A program made the position numbers and the translations under genes. DNA of 64,000 bases, from NCBI GenBank assembly GCA_963664225.1, contig OY760937.1, forward strand, positions 3,968,001 to 4,032,000. Direction: 5' to 3'. Within the stretch, counting starts at the first letter, position 1, and each line of letters begins with the position of its first letter. Source of the stretch: Verrucomicrobiia bacterium. GTDB taxonomy: Bacteria > Verrucomicrobiota > Verrucomicrobiia > Limisphaerales > UBA1319. This document shows positions 5,170 to 30,232 of this stretch, in pieces. The notes beneath the pieces were generated by a model, which did not search any database, had not been told where the DNA came from, and saw only the letters and a program-made list of their open reading frames with translations.

Positions 5170-5238
5170 GCGGGAAAATGCATCACGCGGAGACGAGGAG
5201 AACGCGGAGAATTAGTGTGGAAAGGACCCGAAAAGCCA

Positions 5239-5272
5239 CCTCACCCCGACCCTCTCCCCAGAGCGGAGAGGG
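5239..5272 (+). repeat. BoxC/REP-like extragenic palindrome
   Basis: CCTCACCCCGACCCTCTCC-CCAGAGC-GGAGAGGG: pyrimidine tail plus hairpin, typical of BoxC-type repeats. Confidence 0.65.
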
Positions 5273-5387
5273 AGGAGTTTTTCGCGTTTATGAACGATTG
5301 GACGATTTGGAAACTGGTACCGCGAGGGGGTGACGGACGAAGGAATGAGCGCGAGTACGCGGAAGGCAAATCAGGGATCAGAGGGCG

Positions 5388-5529
5388 GCATAATTCCTGT
5401 TGCCAAGGCGGTGTATGGGGAGCAGGCTGCATTTGTTGTCAACGATGTGATTGCCATGAGGACGGCCCATTCATACGCCAAATCCAATCGACTGAGCTTG
5501 TTCGGTTCAGGCGGGCACAGCTCTGGAGG
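5388..5529 (+). repeat. 140-bp non-coding direct repeat, copy 2
   Basis: Matches 5030-5169. Confidence 0.92.
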
Positions 5530-5594
5530 CTGGCTTGGGAATAAATCAGCACTTGAAAAGTGAACGATATCATGGTCTGATCCCTTTACAATCC

Positions 5595-5716: not shown

Positions 5717-6037
5717 ATGAAATTGATCGACCTAGTCACATACTTTAGACACGGAGGAACTTTCGAGGACTTCTGTAAAACGCAGGCACTCAACGCCGAA
5801 TCTGAGGTCATAGAAATCTACTCTCAGGTGCCTGTTGGCTTGGAATCGCAACTTGGATTTTTCCCCATCGAGGAAACGGAGGGGAAAGCCGAGTTTTCGT
5901 CGAATGGCGTTAAATACAAGACCCTTTTCGATTTTTTCTACTTCTTAGAAGTCATTGAAGATTTGAAAGACGCGCAGCTTCCCGAAGATGGTGAGCTTGC
6001 ACAAAAACTACTGTCATACGCATTGAAAGACGCCTAG
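5717..6037 (+). CDS. Probable immunity protein (106 aa, acidic) cognate to the upstream toxin remnant
   Basis: ATG 11 nt after the remnant's stop codon; small, acidic and more AT-rich than flanking genes. Function inferred from position. Confidence 0.65.
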   Translation: MKLIDLVTYFRHGGTFEDFCKTQALNAESEVIEIYSQVPVGLESQLGFFPIEETEGKAEFSSNGVKYKTLFDFFYFLEVIEDLKDAQLPEDGELAQKLLSYALKDA

Positions 6038-6268
6038 CAGCCTGTTGAAGTGTATCCGTCAGACCAAGTGGCTATAGGCAATGGCCGGTCTGAACTGGTT
6101 AAATGGGGGGCGTAAAGGGGTCACCCATTAGGGCAGGGATCAACAGAATAAAACGTTGCTGCTCCGATTTTTATCTTTTTCGGTTTTTTTCTGTGGTGGC
6201 TCGATAACGCGTCTGCAGGTTCTGACTCAATCCTGCGTTTTCGTCATTAATAATTTCGGATTTCGGGT

Positions 6269-8243
6269 GTGCGCCAGTGAAATTGGTAGCCTCGTGGGTG
6301 AAAGTCCCGCCGGTCGAATTAGACGGTTCACGACCGAAATGCAGCGTCCGGGACGAGGCCGTGAGGCCGAACCACAAGCGGGACGCTGAAAGAACTGTCG
6401 GGTCGTAACGAAAGTAAACCTCATCAAATGAGCTCCGAAACCGAAATAACCGGTAAGCCGAGCCGCTACCCGAACGGCGAAGGCAGAAACGCGGCGTCAT
6501 CAAATCGTCAAATGGGCGCTGTTGATTCCGGCGGAGTCAGCGAGGGCGACACGACAGGAAGGGAAACCAAGGTAAGCTGGGAGATCTCTGGAGGCGGGGC
6601 GATAAAGCCTCAACCGCCGGTGCAAGGAGGAACACCCTCCGAGGCCGCACGGGCAGCCAGAGAAGTCGGAGTCTTCCATAGTAGCGAAGAAGCTGGGGCG
6701 ACCAAAACCCCGGCGGAGCCAAGGGAAGGCACTTGGATCGAAGCGAATCAAAACAGCGAGGGACAGGGAGATGGCCTTGAGGGAGTGGAAACACTTTTTC
6801 AACGGATAACAACCCCGATAAAAGTTCAAAAGCTGCAGCGAGCGCTATATTGCAAAGCCAAGGCTGAGCCGAAGTATCGGTTTTACAGCCTCTACGGAGA
6901 ACTGCTGCGGAAGGACGTGCTGGAAACGGCAATGGCCTCCGTGGCGCACAACAATGGCGCGGCTGGGATCGACGGGCAGACATGCGACGTCTATCTTGCC
7001 AGCGACGAAGCCTGGGACCAATGGCGGAACCAACTGCTGGAGGAGTTACGCACGAAGAAGTATCGGCCAAGCCCGGTGAAGCGTGTGTATATACCAAAAG
7101 GAGACGGGAAGCTGCGACCCCTGGGCATCCCGACAGTGAAAGACCGGGTGGTGCAGACAGCGGTGGTGATTGTATTGCTGCCGATTCTGGAAGCCGATAG
7201 TCATCCGAACAGTTACGCCTATCATCCCAAACGCAATGCCCACCAAGCAATGGAGGCGATCAAGAAGGCTACGCTGACAGGACGCGTCGAAGTTATAGAC
7301 GCGGACTTAAGCGGGTATTTTGACAGCATTCCCCACAGGCGTTTGTTGCGCATAGTGGCCAAGCGGGTCAGCGATGGAACAATTCTCAAGCTGATCGCAG
7401 GATGGCTGCGCGCGCCCGTGAATGAACCGCAAAGCGACACAGGGAAAGGCGGGACAAAGGGGGGGCAAGGTCAGAATCGACGGGGGACTCCGCAAGGCGG
7501 GGTTGTATCGCCGATTTTAGCCAATGCATACCTCAACCAGTTGGATTGGGAAGTCAACGAACGCTGCGAACTCAAACCCGTGATGGTGAGATACGCGGAT
7601 GATTTCGTGATACTCGGACAGCCGGGGCAGGGACGGGAACTGATGGAACGACTGGAACGATGGCTGAAGCAACGCGAGTTAGTGCTCAACGAGAAGAAGA
7701 CCCGCTTGGTGGACCTCCGCCAGGATGGCATCAAATTCTTGGGATTCGCGCTAACAATGCGACAGGGGAAGGGGAAATGGAAATATCCGCATGTGGAACC
7801 CCATCCCAAGAGCCAGAAGAAGTTTCGAGACGGGATTCGGGAGAAACTCAACCGAAGCACGCTATGGCGTGATATCGGAGAGGTGATTCCCGAGCTCAAC
7901 AAGAAACTCAAAGGTTGGAAGGGTTACTTTCACTACGGGAACAGCACCAAGGTGATGGGCCAGATGAACGAATACGTCAGCAGCAAGTTACAACGATGGT
8001 TGTGGCGCAAACACGGATGTAGTCGGGCGCAATGGTCCACATACCCCAAGGAGGATCTCTATGAGCGTTATGGTTTATACCAAATGCCGGAATATGCGGC
8101 ATGGAAACGATGACGTCGAAGCGATGCAACGTATGATCCCCGGAGAGCCGGATGCGGGAAAACCGCCTGTCCGGTTCGATGAGGGGCGAAATGCGACGGT
8201 CATTGGCCACGGCCATTCAATCCGTCCATTTCGCCTACTCTAC
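6269..8243 (+). mobile_element. Group II intron (IIB-like, probably bacterial class E/F)
   Basis: 5' GTGCGC at 6269; EBS1 loop GCCGAGCCG-CTACCCGAA-CGGCGAAGGC; domain V GAGCCGGATGCGGGAAAACCGCCTGTCCGGTTC at 8145-8177 with AGC triad; domain VI with bulged A8237; 3' end CTCTAC at 8243. Confidence 0.93.
6785..8113 (+). CDS. ltrA: Intron-encoded reverse transcriptase/maturase without an endonuclease domain
   Basis: KVQKLQRALY..AK, GAAGIDG, RPLGIPTVKDRVVQ, DADLSGYFD, GTPQGGVVSP, YADD, FLGF, X-domain GWKGYF. Start uncertain (GTG 6785 chosen; track gives 6428). Confidence 0.93.
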   Translation: METLFQRITTPIKVQKLQRALYCKAKAEPKYRFYSLYGELLRKDVLETAMASVAHNNGAAGIDGQTCDVYLASDEAWDQWRNQLLEELRTKKYRPSPVKRVYIPKGDGKLRPLGIPTVKDRVVQTAVVIVLLPILEADSHPNSYAYHPKRNAHQAMEAIKKATLTGRVEVIDADLSGYFDSIPHRRLLRIVAKRVSDGTILKLIAGWLRAPVNEPQSDTGKGGTKGGQGQNRRGTPQGGVVSPILANAYLNQLDWEVNERCELKPVMVRYADDFVILGQPGQGRELMERLERWLKQRELVLNEKKTRLVDLRQDGIKFLGFALTMRQGKGKWKYPHVEPHPKSQKKFRDGIREKLNRSTLWRDIGEVIPELNKKLKGWKGYFHYGNSTKVMGQMNEYVSSKLQRWLWRKHGCSRAQWSTYPKEDLYERYGLYQMPEYAAWKR

Positions 8244-8298
8244 TAAAGGGTTTTTCCGCGAACGGAAGATATATGGCCTGCACCTTACGGATAAGAAA

Positions 8299-13609: not shown

Positions 13610-14440
13610 TCACTGTTCAGCGATTTCCAAGTCAAATTCAAGCCTGGTGGTGGAATCGGTGAGCGCGTTGCGAATCTCGATTTCCTTTAATTCCCAGTGT
13701 CCATTTACCTTGGAAAAGCTGCGGAGGCTGAACTCTTTAAGGAGCTTGCGACTGGCATCATAGGCCTCGGCGCGAATCAAACCGCCGGTTTCGTTGTCGA
13801 TCCAGGAGCGAACACGGGAATAAGAACCGGGCACCGGGTTGGGGTTCGTGCTTTCCAAAACCTTGCAGGGACGGCTCTTGCGCATTTCCCGTTTAATGAT
13901 TTTTTGGTCTGGCCAGTGGAAGAAATCCATTCCCAGATCCGTGAGCCAGAATTCGGTTCCGGCAAAGGGGATCATGGTTTGCCCCGGAGCGATGGCGGTT
14001 GGTTCGGTCAAGTGGCCATCGGGGCCTGAATGGGCCAGGAGGTATTGGTTGGGTGCGTCGGTGCGATGAATGATGGTGAGTTGAGCGGTGATTTGAGCTG
14101 CGCTGGGTCCCGCTTCGTAAACGGCCTGCCAGGAATTGGAACTGGTGGTGGTTTTAAGAGAAACGTACTGTTGGAGGCGGCGCCCTGAAGCTTCGCGTGT
14201 TTTCAAAAGTCCGGATGTGGCAAAAGCCTGTCCAGGGCCTTGATTGCAGAGGTCAGCAGCCAGGGCGCGGCCGTCTGTTTCCTGTTGAATAGGCTCGCTA
14301 ACGGGCTTTACCGGCTGGCTGTGAGCGATTCCAACAAGGAATAGCATGGTAATAATCCACAACGCCAAAGTCGCCCGCATTGTCCCGGAGGCCTGCTGAC
14401 GTAGATGGCGTTGTTGATCCCGCATGCGCGATAATATCAT
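13610..14440 (-). CDS. Outer-membrane lipoprotein-sorting (LolA-like) protein
   Basis: PFAGTEFWLTDL, YSRVRSWID, KVNGHW; hydrophobic N-terminal segment; start uncertain. Confidence 0.75.
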   Translation of the reverse strand: MILSRMRDQQRHLRQQASGTMRATLALWIITMLFLVGIAHSQPVKPVSEPIQQETDGRALAADLCNQGPGQAFATSGLLKTREASGRRLQQYVSLKTTTSSNSWQAVYEAGPSAAQITAQLTIIHRTDAPNQYLLAHSGPDGHLTEPTAIAPGQTMIPFAGTEFWLTDLGMDFFHWPDQKIIKREMRKSRPCKVLESTNPNPVPGSYSRVRSWIDNETGGLIRAEAYDASRKLLKEFSLRSFSKVNGHWELKEIEIRNALTDSTTRLEFDLEIAEQ

Positions 14441-14487
14441 ATTATTTAGAAGCGGCAGGGACGAAATAATTCAAAGACAGCCTTTTA

Positions 14488-14651
14488 ACCCGAAATCCGA
14501 AATAGGAACGGCCCATCTGACGCAATCATTTGGCCATCCATGGTTTGAAACCGGCTGTGGAGTATAGATTTAATACACCTTCGCCGATTGCAAATCATGG
14601 CTGTCTCAAAGCATTGCATCGTCTTGACCATTCTTATTTCGGATTTCGGGT
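14488..14651. mobile_element. 164-bp MITE-like element with 24-bp terminal inverted repeats and TTA flanking duplication
   Basis: Left end ACCCGAAATCCGAAATAGGAACGG; right end reverse complement ACCCGAAATCCGAAATAAGAATGG; TTA at 14485-14487 and 14652-14654. Confidence 0.8.
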
Positions 14652-14706
14652 TTAATGAAAGGTTCGATTTTCCAATGGTCGGAGGCAAAGTGGAGGAATT
14701 GCGCCA

Positions 14707-17172
14707 TTATTCTTTGACCCGGGCCACCTTGTTTGGCTTGTTTGTTTTGTCAGCCTTGGGTGGCAATGCTTTTGGGAGCGGTTGAAGGGCCAGAGGCAGG
14801 GCTTCAGAGATGTGGCTGACGAAGTGTGCGCGCATTTTTTTGCGGACTTCCTCCGGTACTTCGCTCCAGTCGTTGCGGTTGCGGGCGGGTAAAATGACGT
14901 CTTTGATGCCAAACCGGGAGGCGGCTAGGATTTTTTCCTTGATGCCGCCCACAGGGAGAATACGCCCGCGGAGGCTGATTTCTCCGGTCATGGCCAGGTT
15001 TGGCTTGATGAGTCTGTGGGTGAGCAGGGAGGCCAGGGCGACGGTCATGGTCAAGCCGGCGCTGGGGCCGTCCTTGGGGGTGGCTCCTGCGGGAACATGA
15101 ATATGAATATCGTAGCGGTCGTAGTCGCTCAAATCGAGTTTTAAAGAAGCGGCCTGGCTGCGCAGATAGCTCAGGGCGGTTTGCGCGCTCTCTTTCATGA
15201 CATCACCGAGCGAGCCAGTGAGGATCAATCCACCTTTGCCGGGCATCCGGGTGGCTTCAATGAATAATATATCGCCGCCCACCGGAGTCCAAGCCAGGCC
15301 AACCACGATGCCAACTTCGGTGATTTTCTCGGCTGTCTCGGCAAGAAAAGGGGGCAAACCAAGGAATTTATCCAGTGCTTTTGGAGAAATGACCAGGGGT
15401 TTGTGAATGTGATTGCCGTTGGCGAATTTGCGGGCGGCTTTACGGCTCATGCTGGCAACCTCGCGCTCCAATTGGCGCACGCCCGCTTCACGGGTGTATT
15501 CCTCAATGACGCGGCGCAAAGTGGGGTCTGGGAATTTAACGGATTTGCGCGATAAACCGTGTTCATCTAATTGGCGTGGAACGAGATATCTGCGCGCAAT
15601 TTGAAGCTTTTCAGCGACGGTATAACTCGGCAGTTCGATGACTTCAAGGCGGTCTCGCAATGCGGGATGGATCGGGTCGAGCCAATTTGCCGTGGTGATA
15701 AAAAGGACGCGCGAGAGGTCGAACGGGAGGTCAATGTAATGGTCTGTAAACGTTTTATTTTGTTGCGGATCAAGAACTTCCAAAAGAGCTGACGAGGGAT
15801 CGCCGCGAAAGTCGGAGCCGACCTTGTCGATTTCATCGAGAAGGATGACGGGATTGTTGCTTTCCACGCGGCGGAGGCTTTGGATGATCCGACCGGGCAG
15901 GGCGCCGACGTAGGTGCGGCGGTGGCCCCTGATTTCTGCCTCATCGCGCATGCCACCCAGTGAAATGCGGGCAAATTTACGTCCCAAGGCATCCGCGACG
16001 CTCATGCCAAGAGAGGTTTTACCAACTCCTGGAGGGCCTACGAGACAAAGGAGCGGGCCTTTGAGGCTGTTTTTGAGTTTGATGACGGCAATAAATTCGA
16101 GCAACCGGTCTTTGATCTTGGTCAGGCCGTAGTGTTGGGCGTTGAGAATGCGCGTGGCTTCTTTAAGGTCCACTTTGTCGTCGGTGGATTTGGCCCAGGG
16201 CAGGTTGATCAGCCAGTCCAGGTAATTGCGGGTGACGGTGTATTCGGCCACCGTGGGAGGGATTTGCTGGAGGCGGTCCAGTTCGCGCAGGGCCACGATT
16301 CTGGCTTCTTCGGGGAGGTTGTTGCGGGTGATTTGTTCTTTGAGAGTCTGCGTTTCCGCCGAGGCCGAGTCTTCCTCTCCCAATTCGCGTTGAATGGCCC
16401 GCATTTGCTCGCGCAAATAGAATTCGCGCTGGTTTTTGGACATGGAACTGGCCACATCCTTCTGAATTTTGCTGCTGAGGTTGAGAACTTCAAGCTCGCG
16501 GGCCATGAGCGGACCGAGGCGGGTCAAACGCTCTTTGATGTTGTTTGTGGCGAGGAGGGTTTGACGTTCCTCCAAATTGAGATTGAGATTTCCGGCAATC
16601 AGATCGGAGAGGCGGCCCGGATCTTCGGTGTTCAGGGCGGCGACTTTAATTTGGTCGGAAAGGGCGGGGGACAGGTTGACGATATCTTCAAACTGACGAT
16701 GGGAGGTGCGGGAAAGGGCGTCCATTTCCAATCCCGGTTCCAGGATATCCTGGAGCGGTTGGACATGCGCGCGCAAGTAAGGTGTGTTGGCTTCGTATTT
16801 CAGGATTTGGACCCGCCTGAGGCCTTCGACAAGAATCCGGATTGTATTGTCCGGGAACTTGAGCATTTTTAGAACGCGGGCTGCGCAGCCATTTGGAAAT
16901 AGATCGTCCGGCACTGGATTGTCGATCTCGGGCTTGCGTTGGAGGACCAGGACTAAGAAACGGTCGCCAGCGACGACGTCGTCAATGAGTCGAATGCTTT
17001 GTTGGGAATCAACCAATAGCGGCGCGGTCATTCCGGGAAAGATGACTACGTCTGAGAGGCCCAAAATTGGCATTACTTCGGGCAGGGATTGCGGTCCACG
17101 AGGTGGCGTCGCATCCGTATCTTCGGCATTCGCGTCCAGAATGTCGATTAATTCACTTTCCGACGGTGTCAT
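14707..17172 (-). CDS. lon: ATP-dependent Lon protease
   Basis: GPPGVGKTS, RGHRRTYVGALPG, LLDEIDK, PKDGPSAG, VGGIKEK. Confidence 0.97.
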   Translation of the reverse strand: MTPSESELIDILDANAEDTDATPPRGPQSLPEVMPILGLSDVVIFPGMTAPLLVDSQQSIRLIDDVVAGDRFLVLVLQRKPEIDNPVPDDLFPNGCAARVLKMLKFPDNTIRILVEGLRRVQILKYEANTPYLRAHVQPLQDILEPGLEMDALSRTSHRQFEDIVNLSPALSDQIKVAALNTEDPGRLSDLIAGNLNLNLEERQTLLATNNIKERLTRLGPLMARELEVLNLSSKIQKDVASSMSKNQREFYLREQMRAIQRELGEEDSASAETQTLKEQITRNNLPEEARIVALRELDRLQQIPPTVAEYTVTRNYLDWLINLPWAKSTDDKVDLKEATRILNAQHYGLTKIKDRLLEFIAVIKLKNSLKGPLLCLVGPPGVGKTSLGMSVADALGRKFARISLGGMRDEAEIRGHRRTYVGALPGRIIQSLRRVESNNPVILLDEIDKVGSDFRGDPSSALLEVLDPQQNKTFTDHYIDLPFDLSRVLFITTANWLDPIHPALRDRLEVIELPSYTVAEKLQIARRYLVPRQLDEHGLSRKSVKFPDPTLRRVIEEYTREAGVRQLEREVASMSRKAARKFANGNHIHKPLVISPKALDKFLGLPPFLAETAEKITEVGIVVGLAWTPVGGDILFIEATRMPGKGGLILTGSLGDVMKESAQTALSYLRSQAASLKLDLSDYDRYDIHIHVPAGATPKDGPSAGLTMTVALASLLTHRLIKPNLAMTGEISLRGRILPVGGIKEKILAASRFGIKDVILPARNRNDWSEVPEEVRKKMRAHFVSHISEALPLALQPLPKALPPKADKTNKPNKVARVKE

Positions 17173-19601: not shown

Positions 19602-21182
<1,581 letters not shown>

Positions 21183-21341
21183 AGTATCCGGGGTAAAAAC
21201 CGGATGCAAAGTTCGAACCATGACGCAAGTTTTGGAGAGGGCTCGCTTATCGCACAATTCAATTTTTAAAAGGGTTTTGGGGAGTTCTTTGCAAACCTGT
21301 CGGGTGAGGGCGAAACCCTCTGGCGTTAAAAGGCCGGGGAA

Positions 21342-21416
<75 letters not shown>

Positions 21417-21451
21417 GGGGCCCGAAGCGGGCAGGGAGAGTTCAGCCAAGC

Positions 21452-21528
21452 GGGCCTGTAGCTCAGTTGGTTAGAGCATGCGCTTGATAAGCGCAGGGTC
21501 ACTGGTTCAAGTCCAGTCAGGCCCACCA
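21452..21528 (+). tRNA. tRNA-Ile(GAU)
   Basis: GGGCCTG/CAGGCCC acceptor, anticodon GAT, encoded CCA. Confidence 0.97.
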
Positions 21529-21667
21529 TCTCCTCCACCGCACGATTTTTGACCGGAGCAATCCGGCCAGGTTCTTTGACAACTATACATGGTAAGATAG
21601 TAATAAGGGTAAAATTACAGTGAGCTGAGTTCTATTGTGTTTCTAACGAACCGATAGATATTTTTTT

Positions 21668-24527
<2,860 letters not shown>

Positions 24528-24624
24528 AATACAACAAAATGATCAATTTCTCAGTATCAGGGTAGTTTGACCCAATATCCCCATGTATAGTTTTCAGAGA
24601 ACCTGTGGTTCTTTATAACACTTT

Positions 24625-24740
24625 TTTGGTGACCATAAAGCTGTGGTCCGACCCGATCCCATCCCGAACTCGGCCGTCAAACACAGCCTTGCCGATGGTA
24701 GTACTTGTATAGCTCGTGCGAGAGTAGGTTGTCGCCAAAT
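24625..24740 (+). rRNA. rrf: 5S rRNA, operon 1
   Basis: TTTGGTGAC...CCCATCCCGAACTC...GAGAGTAGGTTGTCGCCAAA. Confidence 0.96.
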
Positions 24741-25093: not shown

Positions 25094-26674
<1,581 letters not shown>

Positions 26675-26833
26675 AGTATCCGGGGTAAAAACCGGATGCA
26701 AAGTTCGAACCATGACGCAAGTTTTGGAGAGGGCTCGCTTATCGCACAATTCAATTTTTAAAAGGGTTTTGGGGAGTTCTTTGCAAACCTGTCGGGTGAG
26801 GGCGAAACCCTCTGGCGTTAAAAGGCCGGGGAA

Positions 26834-26908
<75 letters not shown>

Positions 26909-26943
26909 GGGGCCCGAAGCGGGCAGGGAGAGTTCAGCCAAGC

Positions 26944-27020
26944 GGGCCTGTAGCTCAGTTGGTTAGAGCATGCGCTTGATAAGCGCAGGGTCACTGGTTC
27001 AAGTCCAGTCAGGCCCACCA
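26944..27020 (+). tRNA. tRNA-Ile(GAU)
   Basis: Copy of 21452-21528. Confidence 0.97.
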
Positions 27021-27159
27021 TCTCCTCCACCGCACGATTTTTGACCGGAGCAATCCGGCCAGGTTCTTTGACAACTATACATGGTAAGATAGTAATAAGG
27101 GTAAAATTACAGTGAGCTGAGTTCTATTGTGTTTCTAACGAACCGATAGATATTTTTTT

Positions 27160-30019
<2,860 letters not shown>

Positions 30020-30116
30020 AATACAACAAAATGATCAATTTCTCAGTATCAGGGTAGTTTGACCCAATATCCCCATGTATAGTTTTCAGAGAACCTGTGG
30101 TTCTTTATAACACTTT

Positions 30117-30232
30117 TTTGGTGACCATAAAGCTGTGGTCCGACCCGATCCCATCCCGAACTCGGCCGTCAAACACAGCCTTGCCGATGGTAGTACTTGT
30201 ATAGCTCGTGCGAGAGTAGGTTGTCGCCAAAT
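30117..30232 (+). rRNA. rrf: 5S rRNA, operon 2
   Basis: Copy of operon 1 5S. Confidence 0.96.

Follow-up and report, generated by a model that had tools for sequence, protein, structure and literature searches.

A predicted endonuclease-less, IIB-like group II intron at the ends of IS1380-family elements and MITEs in a Verrucomicrobiia bacterium

The 64,000-nucleotide stretch analysed here (the window; positions 3,968,001 to 4,032,000 of OY760937.1, the single 5.78-Mb contig that constitutes the genome of a Verrucomicrobiia bacterium) harbors a complete group II intron of which the genome contains 19 copies, all full length and 100% identical. All 19 lie at the same exon junction, 17 of them directly beside an intact end of either a miniature inverted-repeat transposable element (MITE) or an insertion sequence (IS) that, judging by its predicted transposase, belongs to the IS1380 family, and no copy was found at an unrelated site. 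The intron is thus specialised on the ends of one DNA transposon family, as a preliminary description of the window had proposed, and this holds throughout the genome. Very probably, the whole pattern is the work of a IIB-like intron without endonuclease, whose RNA would read the tip of the IS1380/MITE inverted repeat together with the first base of the target-site duplication (TSD).

The 5′ exon is TCGGA[T/G]TTCGGGT in 19 of 19 copies and the 3′ exon begins with TAAA or TTAA. Thirteen copies have a MITE as neighbor, four an IS1380-family element and two an orphan transposon tip. Introns are found at either end of the MITE and of the IS, and no element carries two of them; 13 of the 19 full MITEs and four of the five IS copies bear an intron, which leaves six full MITEs and one IS without. 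The 16-mer ATTTCGGATTTCGGGT, which precedes the intron in the window, occurs there three times when up to two mismatches are allowed (6253-6268 on the plus, 14488-14503 on the minus and 14636-14651 on the plus strand), whereas shuffled windows have 0.08 occurrences on average and none of 100 shuffles attained three. In the whole genome it was counted 40 times, and it is indeed a recurrent element terminus region. The window copy itself is one of the two at an orphan tip: the sequence upstream of 6253 resembles neither the MITE nor the IS, and the match to the element end extends over the 16 nt directly upstream only. The other orphan-tip copy, at 2065436, keeps 13 nt, and both lie in a TTAAA context.

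The exact point of insertion follows from the TSDs, which were read from the flanks of all elements after removal of the intron. The TSD is 5 bp long, usually TTTAA or TTAAA; two MITE copies have 4 bp. Two MITEs decide the matter: the one at 174177 has TTTAT on both sides, so that CCCG is preceded by T instead of A, and the one at 828002 has TTGAG. A 3-bp TSD (TTA/TAA) with a repeat starting ACCC had also been considered and is ruled out by these two copies. With a 5-bp TSD, the inverted repeat begins with CCCG, and the TSD starts with the final T of the 16-mer. The preliminary description had taken the 16-mer as the end of the MITE and had placed the intron at the boundary between the repeat and its TAA/TTA flank. 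Of this, the first 15 nt of the 16-mer and the vicinity to the repeat end stand; the last T belongs to the TSD, the copy in the window adjoins no MITE body, and the intron in fact lies within the TSD, one base away from the terminal inverted repeat (...TTCGGG-T / intron / TWAA).

Removal of the intron restores a TSD of 5 bp in 16 of the 17 element-associated copies and of 4 bp in the 17th, and the 3′ boundary of the intron was set by this restoration. Since the TSD is split by the intron and whole without it, the transposon was in place before the intron arrived, and the intron was not mobilized together with the element. Since the intron lies one base outside the repeat, the inverted repeat is left intact. 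Neither an immobilisation of the host by the intron nor a ride of the intron on its host is therefore supported: in all 17 element-associated copies the repeat is intact, the TSD is split and the intron came later. All 19 copies have T as base +1 and TAAA or TTAA at positions +1 to +4, and the T at +1, the second base of the TSD, is likely IBS3 (intron-binding site 3), for which an EBS3 (exon-binding site 3) partner is predicted. The position within the TSD has a further consequence, namely that the full homing site, including bases -1 and +1, arises only when an element lands in its preferred TTWAA target. It is tempting to speculate, and we see the arguments for and against as evenly balanced, that only the landing of a transposon creates the homing site, a junction made of six bases of the inverted repeat and the first two bases of the TSD. 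The intron would then be a parasite of transposition events and not of transposon sequence, would neither break nor ride its host, and would owe most of the 50 sites behind its 19 identical copies to a burst of the MITE and not to the autonomous IS.

Two kinds of element serve as host. The preliminary description had named a MITE-like element, and a MITE it is; the IS1380-family element is a host as well. The MITE is short (164 bp) and non-coding, has IS-like terminal inverted repeats and 4- or 5-bp duplications and is present in many copies, that is, 19 full, three interrupted and three partial ones. Its terminus reads CCCGAAATCCGA, that of the IS CCCGAACTCCGA. The IS is 1534 bp long, has termini starting CCCGAAC and is present in five copies, of which five have a 5-bp TSD. 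Its transposase of 474 amino acids matches NF033539 (IS1380) with 2.8e-67 and 227 bits, against a cut-off of 180, and PF13701 with 2.4e-27. Terminal inverted repeats and a duplication of 4-5 bp are typical of the IS1380 family (ISfinder figures). MITE copies diverge by up to 8% and intron copies are identical; therefore, the intron burst is younger than the spread of the MITE. Both homing sites of the intact MITE in the window, 14651/14652 on the plus and 14488/14487 on the minus strand, are empty.

In two places (828002-831676 and 2984654-2988329, the latter about 2 kb from dnaA) a triple nesting was seen, in which an IS1380-family element with the intron at one of its ends interrupts a MITE at the central TTAA. 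The order of nesting is thus MITE, then IS, then intron. Another MITE, at 264553-266581 (locus L003), is broken by an IS1634-family element (transposase of 545 amino acids, NF033559, 7.7e-98), and its outer ends have no matching duplication. The MITE was found in none of 40 other related genomes searched, one of them of the same genus; this same-genus genome, in which an orthologous empty site was sought, has no more than about 72% identity in the neighboring gene.

The features of the window are compiled in Table 1. The intron has the 5′ GUGYG, the domains V and VI with AGC triad, the 3′ AY end, the domain I fold and, in domain IV, the reverse transcriptase (RT)/maturase protein with YADD of mobile bacterial group II introns. 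Both RNA and protein mark it as a mobile, IIB-like group II intron without endonuclease. Without the open reading frame (ORF) the RNA is about 650 nt long, and domain V comprises 34 nt. The consensus fold of domain I, calculated by RNAalifold from this intron and five relatives, has 77 pairs, 11 of which have compensatory changes. A Pfam search with the intron protein of 442 amino acids gave RVT_1 (103-322, 1e-34) and GIIM (345-417, 7.3e-14) and no endonuclease (HNH/En) domain downstream of the maturase domain. The protein scores 357 bits with the NCBI group II RT/maturase model TIGR04416, for which the cut-off is 300, and YADDF is present in the translation. The closest solved structures are IIC reverse transcriptases, 7uim (8e-53) and 6ar1 (8.6e-48). 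A literature search on the Rfam D1D4 family names gave no mapping to an intron class, and among the matches listed in tblastn searches of plasmids there was none from Sinorhizobium that could have served for a class comparison. Promoter and terminator scans of 5950-6300 and 14400-14720 of the window gave 0 matches.

Table 1 Features of the group II intron, its insertion site and the intact MITE in the window.
Feature	Position	Strand	Remarks
Orphan transposon tip	6253-6267	+	15 nt identical to outermost 15 nt of MITE inverted repeat (...CGGG)
Putative IBS2 ATTTCGG	6253-6259	+	Complements EBS2 candidate; invariant core in 19 copies only TCGG (6256-6259)
IBS1 TTCGGGT	6262-6268	+	Complements EBS1; same in 19/19 copies
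Base -1 (T)	6268	+	First base of TSD-like pentamer TTAAA split by intron
Complete group II intron, 1975 nt	6269-8243	+	Begins GTGCG, ends CTAC; one of 19 identical genome copies
Domain I match	6301-6546	+	RF02005, 54.9 bits vs gathering score 49, full model length 1-225
Hypervariable 12-nt domain I internal loop AAACCGAAAUAA	6438-6449	+	Contains EBS2 candidate CCGAAAU (6441-6447); unpaired in both structures
9-nt hairpin loop CUACCCGAA	6466-6474	+	Contains EBS1 ACCCGAA (6468-6474); unpaired in both structures
Intron protein ORF	6785-8113	+	Frame open from 6428; GTG 6785 = start used for searches, 442 aa
Domains V and VI	8143-8243	+	RF00029, 49.3 bits vs gathering score 40
3′ exon start TAAA	8244-8247	+	Joins 6268 to give TTAAA; 3′ exon at window copy TAAAG
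Left TSD copy TTTAA	14484-14488		
Intact MITE, CCCG...CGGG, 162 bp	14489-14650		~73% self-complementary
Right TSD copy TTTAA	14651-14655		

The complementarity of EBS1 to TTCGGGT and of the EBS2 candidate to ATTTCGG, on which the preliminary description had been built, is borne out, and both segments are unpaired in the Rfam family alignment and in the independent RNAalifold structure of the six sequences. The helix immediately 5′ of the EBS2 loop is preserved by a compensatory change, U-A in this intron and C-G in the other five sequences. An alternative EBS2, UCCGA (6434-6438), which could pair with the invariant positions -13 to -9, was rejected; it falls in a helix kept by compensatory change. 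EBS1 is confirmed by its covariation with the end of the 5′ exon in five introns: ACCCGAA and TTCGGGT in this genome, ACCUGAA and TTCAGGT in L026, UCCUGAA and TTCAGGA in L028, CCACGGAU and ATCCGTGG in L029, and GCCGUAA and TTACGGC in the ORF-less G034. As to EBS2, its complementarity exceeds chance: the 9-nt match of its loop to one MITE end, noted at the outset, is real and was reached by 45 of 20,000 shuffled loops; for the site in the window, where the match is 7 nt long, the count was 35 of 20,000, so that the chance is about 0.2%.

Recognition by base pairing is also supported by sites that have stayed empty. A site was defined as TCGGA[T/G]TTCGGGT with either T or the intron directly behind it; of the 50 in the genome 19 are filled. 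Two empty sites on the favored strand, at 2199902 and at the plus-strand end of the element at 3186565, have a mutated IBS1.

The strand occupied by the intron changes with the position on the chromosome. Along the contig the copies read five plus, six minus and eight plus, which is two switches on the circle and, by our count, has a chance of 19/C(19,6) or about 7e-4. From 3.7 Mb across 0 to 1.3 Mb, where both GC and 7-mer skew are clearly positive, the intron fills 11 of 16 plus sites and 0 of 12 minus sites (Fisher about 2e-4, our calculation); where the skew is clearly negative (1.5-1.7 Mb), 0 of 1 plus and 1 of 1 minus sites are filled, and in the neutral remainder 2 of 9 and 5 of 11, respectively. 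Since the orientation follows chromosome position, the pattern fits entry into the lagging-strand template with nascent DNA as primer, and the insertion of the intron would then be primed at the fork.

Taken together, we envisage the following mechanism. EBS1 (ACCCGAA) pairs with the TTCGGG at the repeat end and with the T that opens the TSD, and EBS2 (CCGA, up to CCGAAAUAA) would pair with the TCGG core 10-13 nt upstream. The element ends read alike in the outward direction and TTWAA targets are preferred, so that each transposition would yield two fresh homing sites, one per strand. The intron would reverse-splice into the lagging-strand template at a passing replication fork, where nascent DNA would serve as primer; such an entry would fit both the presence of at most one intron per element and the shift of the occupied strand with chromosome position. 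The intron arrives after the transposon, leaves the repeat whole, is not carried with the element and rests in harmless intergenic DNA.

Three other explanations have to be weighed against this mechanism. The specificity could come from EBS1 and protein contacts only, and the tip's tandem ATTTCGG repeat could have given rise to an EBS2 match that is not used. Indeed, IBS1 and IBS2 are near-copies of each other, so that an EBS2-like match could come from sequence duplication; furthermore, there is no clear EBS2/IBS2 pairing in relatives, and positions -16 to -14 vary among occupied sites. Nevertheless, we consider this unlikely. The match lies in a hypervariable internal loop at the canonical IIB position of EBS2, between helices supported by covariation, it would arise by chance at the low rate given above, and the TCGG core is present in 19 of 19 sites. 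The MITE at 4325638 has a plus-strand end that is short of one 7-nt repeat, and this end is unoccupied. For RmInt2 of Sinorhizobium meliloti, the accessible part of the report has it that four paired EBS2 bases suffice (PMC4615759). We infer that EBS2 is used by the intron.

A different view is that a DNA or RNA hairpin is recognized, as by class IIC introns at terminators or attC sites, that the palindromic MITE provides this hairpin and that the sequence match is secondary. The self-complementarity of the MITE over its length speaks for it, as do the related introns L119, L123 and L029, which lie directly after small palindromes, and the IIC reverse transcriptases (7uim, 6ar1) as best structural matches of the protein. 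However, no local hairpin exists at the four copies at IS ends or the two at orphan tips, and there is no fold common to the two MITE ends, two IS ends and two orphans that make up the six kinds of 5′ exon, the best being -0.3 to -5.8 kcal/mol and all of different shape. An RNA of this size with an EBS2-type loop, a domain V of 34 nt and a match to RF02005 is not that of class IIC either. Recognition by base pairing is the simpler reading, and hairpin recognition is very improbable. IS1380-family members such as ISEcp1 mobilize adjacent DNA by one-ended transposition. This capability, as well as the constant adjacency of the intron and both kinds of element, could be taken to mean that the IS or MITE inserted beside existing introns or that element and intron move as a composite. 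Either course predicts a whole TSD outside, but it is the intron that splits the TSD and its removal that restores it; in addition, the MITEs diverge whereas the introns are identical, and the six full MITEs and the one IS mentioned above are free of introns. We give next to no credence to a reverse order or a composite.

Recognition of the element tip by base pairing, followed by entry at the fork, also has to face several observations that weigh against it. To explain the two orphan tips it has to be assumed that they are left over from truncated element ends; the genome does contain partial MITEs of 43-107 nt. Seven intact sites on the favored strand are still empty, so that saturation is at most possible and current activity of the intron an inference. 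No joint across 6269-8243, spliced or empty-site, was found in the contigs of four public runs; one repeat contig from these runs covers 6256-8244, merely the stretch common to all intron copies. There is no covariation of EBS2 with the 5′ exon in relatives, whose 5′ exons, by inspection, pair unconvincingly with their own loops, and the invariance of positions -13 to -9 may merely mirror the identity of the repeat. As to replication, origin and terminus cannot be placed from composition, with a near-zero skew over 2.4 Mb: GC skew, gene-strand bias and 7-mer skew give no decision for 1.3-3.7 Mb, and the net cumulative GC skew is +116,285 and never returns to zero. Seven of the 19 introns lie inside this flat arc and are uninformative on fork direction. 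The arc also contains dnaA (2.990-2.991 Mb), and the plus-strand copy at 2986270, about 2 kb away, is on the side where an origin linked to dnaA predicts the opposite strand.

Introns of about 77% identity are present in assemblies labelled Rhodocyclaceae, Planctomycetales, Hyphomicrobiaceae and Akkermansia and in several metagenome contigs. They carry other EBS1 sequences and a different conserved 5′ exon (AACTGCNGTTTTCAGGT), and the specialisation on this transposon tip therefore belongs to the lineage of this genome. The nearest relatives, L026, L117, L119, L123, L125, L130 and L132, come from different assemblies and have in common a 5′ exon of about 17-25 nt (GGTT..AACTGCNGTTTTCAGGT), in some as a small hairpin followed by Ts. 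The 5′ exon of L029 is an imperfect palindrome of 75 nt with tandem ATCCGTGCA units, part of which recurs in L125; the palindrome may itself be a further small repeat element whose tip bears an intron. L007 (G034:C102:13087-13781, minus strand), about 700 nt long, is an ORF-less derivative within the same intron family and has an EBS1 of its own that fits its 5′ exon. In the genome studied here, four matches of about 76% identity to 119-123 nt of the RT region, near 1677346, 2330644, 5162225 and 5605284, suggest a second group II intron family.

The window contains two further repeats. At about 5170-5580 lies a member of another dispersed repeat family, which has no relation to the intron and has copies of 80-93% identity at numerous places in the genome; contig joints and variants cluster there. 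Two complete rRNA operons (16S, two tRNAs, 23S, 5S) at 19602-24740 and 25094-30232 stand in direct tandem on the plus strand, with identical Rfam scores throughout, which looks like a recent tandem duplication.

With 50 equivalent sites, of which 19 are filled and two mutated ones empty, the genome provides a large natural data set on targeting by an endonuclease-less intron, and the offer of both strands at every element makes it a natural experiment on strand preference. If the strand pattern holds in other genomes with IS1380 elements, intron orientation could record fork direction where GC skew fails. For annotation, the intron accounts for 19 repeats of about 2 kb, and the 16-mer should not be taken as the true terminus of the element.

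A search of the literature, in which subscription journals were not covered, turned up no description of group II introns at MITE tips, at IS1380 ends or in the TSD one base away from the repeat, with RmInt2 as the only close precedent. According to the accessible part of its description, this class D (IIB) intron of S. meliloti GR4 has seven identical copies, all inside the inverted repeats of ISRm17 (Martinez-Rodriguez et al., RNA Biol 2014, PMC4615759). These repeats give it two sites per element on opposite replication strands, of which one is assured to be on the lagging strand (PMC4615759, same part). A preference for the lagging-strand template with priming by nascent DNA was shown for RmInt1 and RmInt2 (PMC4615759, as far as accessible; reviewed in PMC4424553). 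The intron described here resembles RmInt2 in the lack of an endonuclease, the identity of its copies (seven there, 19 here), the IS inverted repeats as targets and the lagging-strand bias, which here is derived from sequence alone. RmInt2, too, is taken to have been acquired recently. In contrast to RmInt2, which lies within the ISRm17 inverted repeat, it lies one base outside the repeat in the TSD, so that its site needs transposition and the repeat stays whole; moreover, its host family is IS1380 and a MITE supplies most of the sites.

RmInt1, another class D intron of S. meliloti, which uses ISRm2011-2, is, in what is accessible of the reports on it, likewise an endonuclease-less IIB intron that lives in IS copies and is primed at the fork with a lagging-strand preference, a trait that would apply to the present intron as well. 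Its target is the ISRm2011-2 site, which the same accessible text does not place in inverted repeats, and by our reading there is thus only one site per element. RmInt1 lies inside ISRm2011-2 and so travels with the element.

Class IIC introns such as B.h.I1, GsI-IIC and E.r. IIC insert after terminator or attC stem-loops (PMC4424553; PMC1702495, the latter as far as its text is accessible). They share with the present intron the lack of an endonuclease and the intergenic insertion immediately after inverted-repeat DNA, and among solved structures it is their proteins that match the intron protein best. However, class IIC reads a hairpin and a short IBS1 and has no EBS2, whereas the intron described here has no common hairpin, an IBS1 of 7 nt, an EBS2 loop and a larger RNA. 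The physical coupling of a ribozyme intron to a DNA transposon is also known from IStrons, chimeras of a group I intron and an IS (PMC4227781, accessible part). IStrons, as described there, are single fused elements moved by a transposase; here, there are two separate elements and the intron would move by its own reverse transcriptase.

Altogether, the strategy of inserting at transposon tips was already published for RmInt2 and ISRm17, and no new mechanism is opened by our analysis. With it, a further IS family, MITEs and the junction of repeat and TSD join the known targets of this strategy: what differs here from RmInt2 is the IS1380 family as host, the MITE as main provider of sites and the position of the intron in the TSD.

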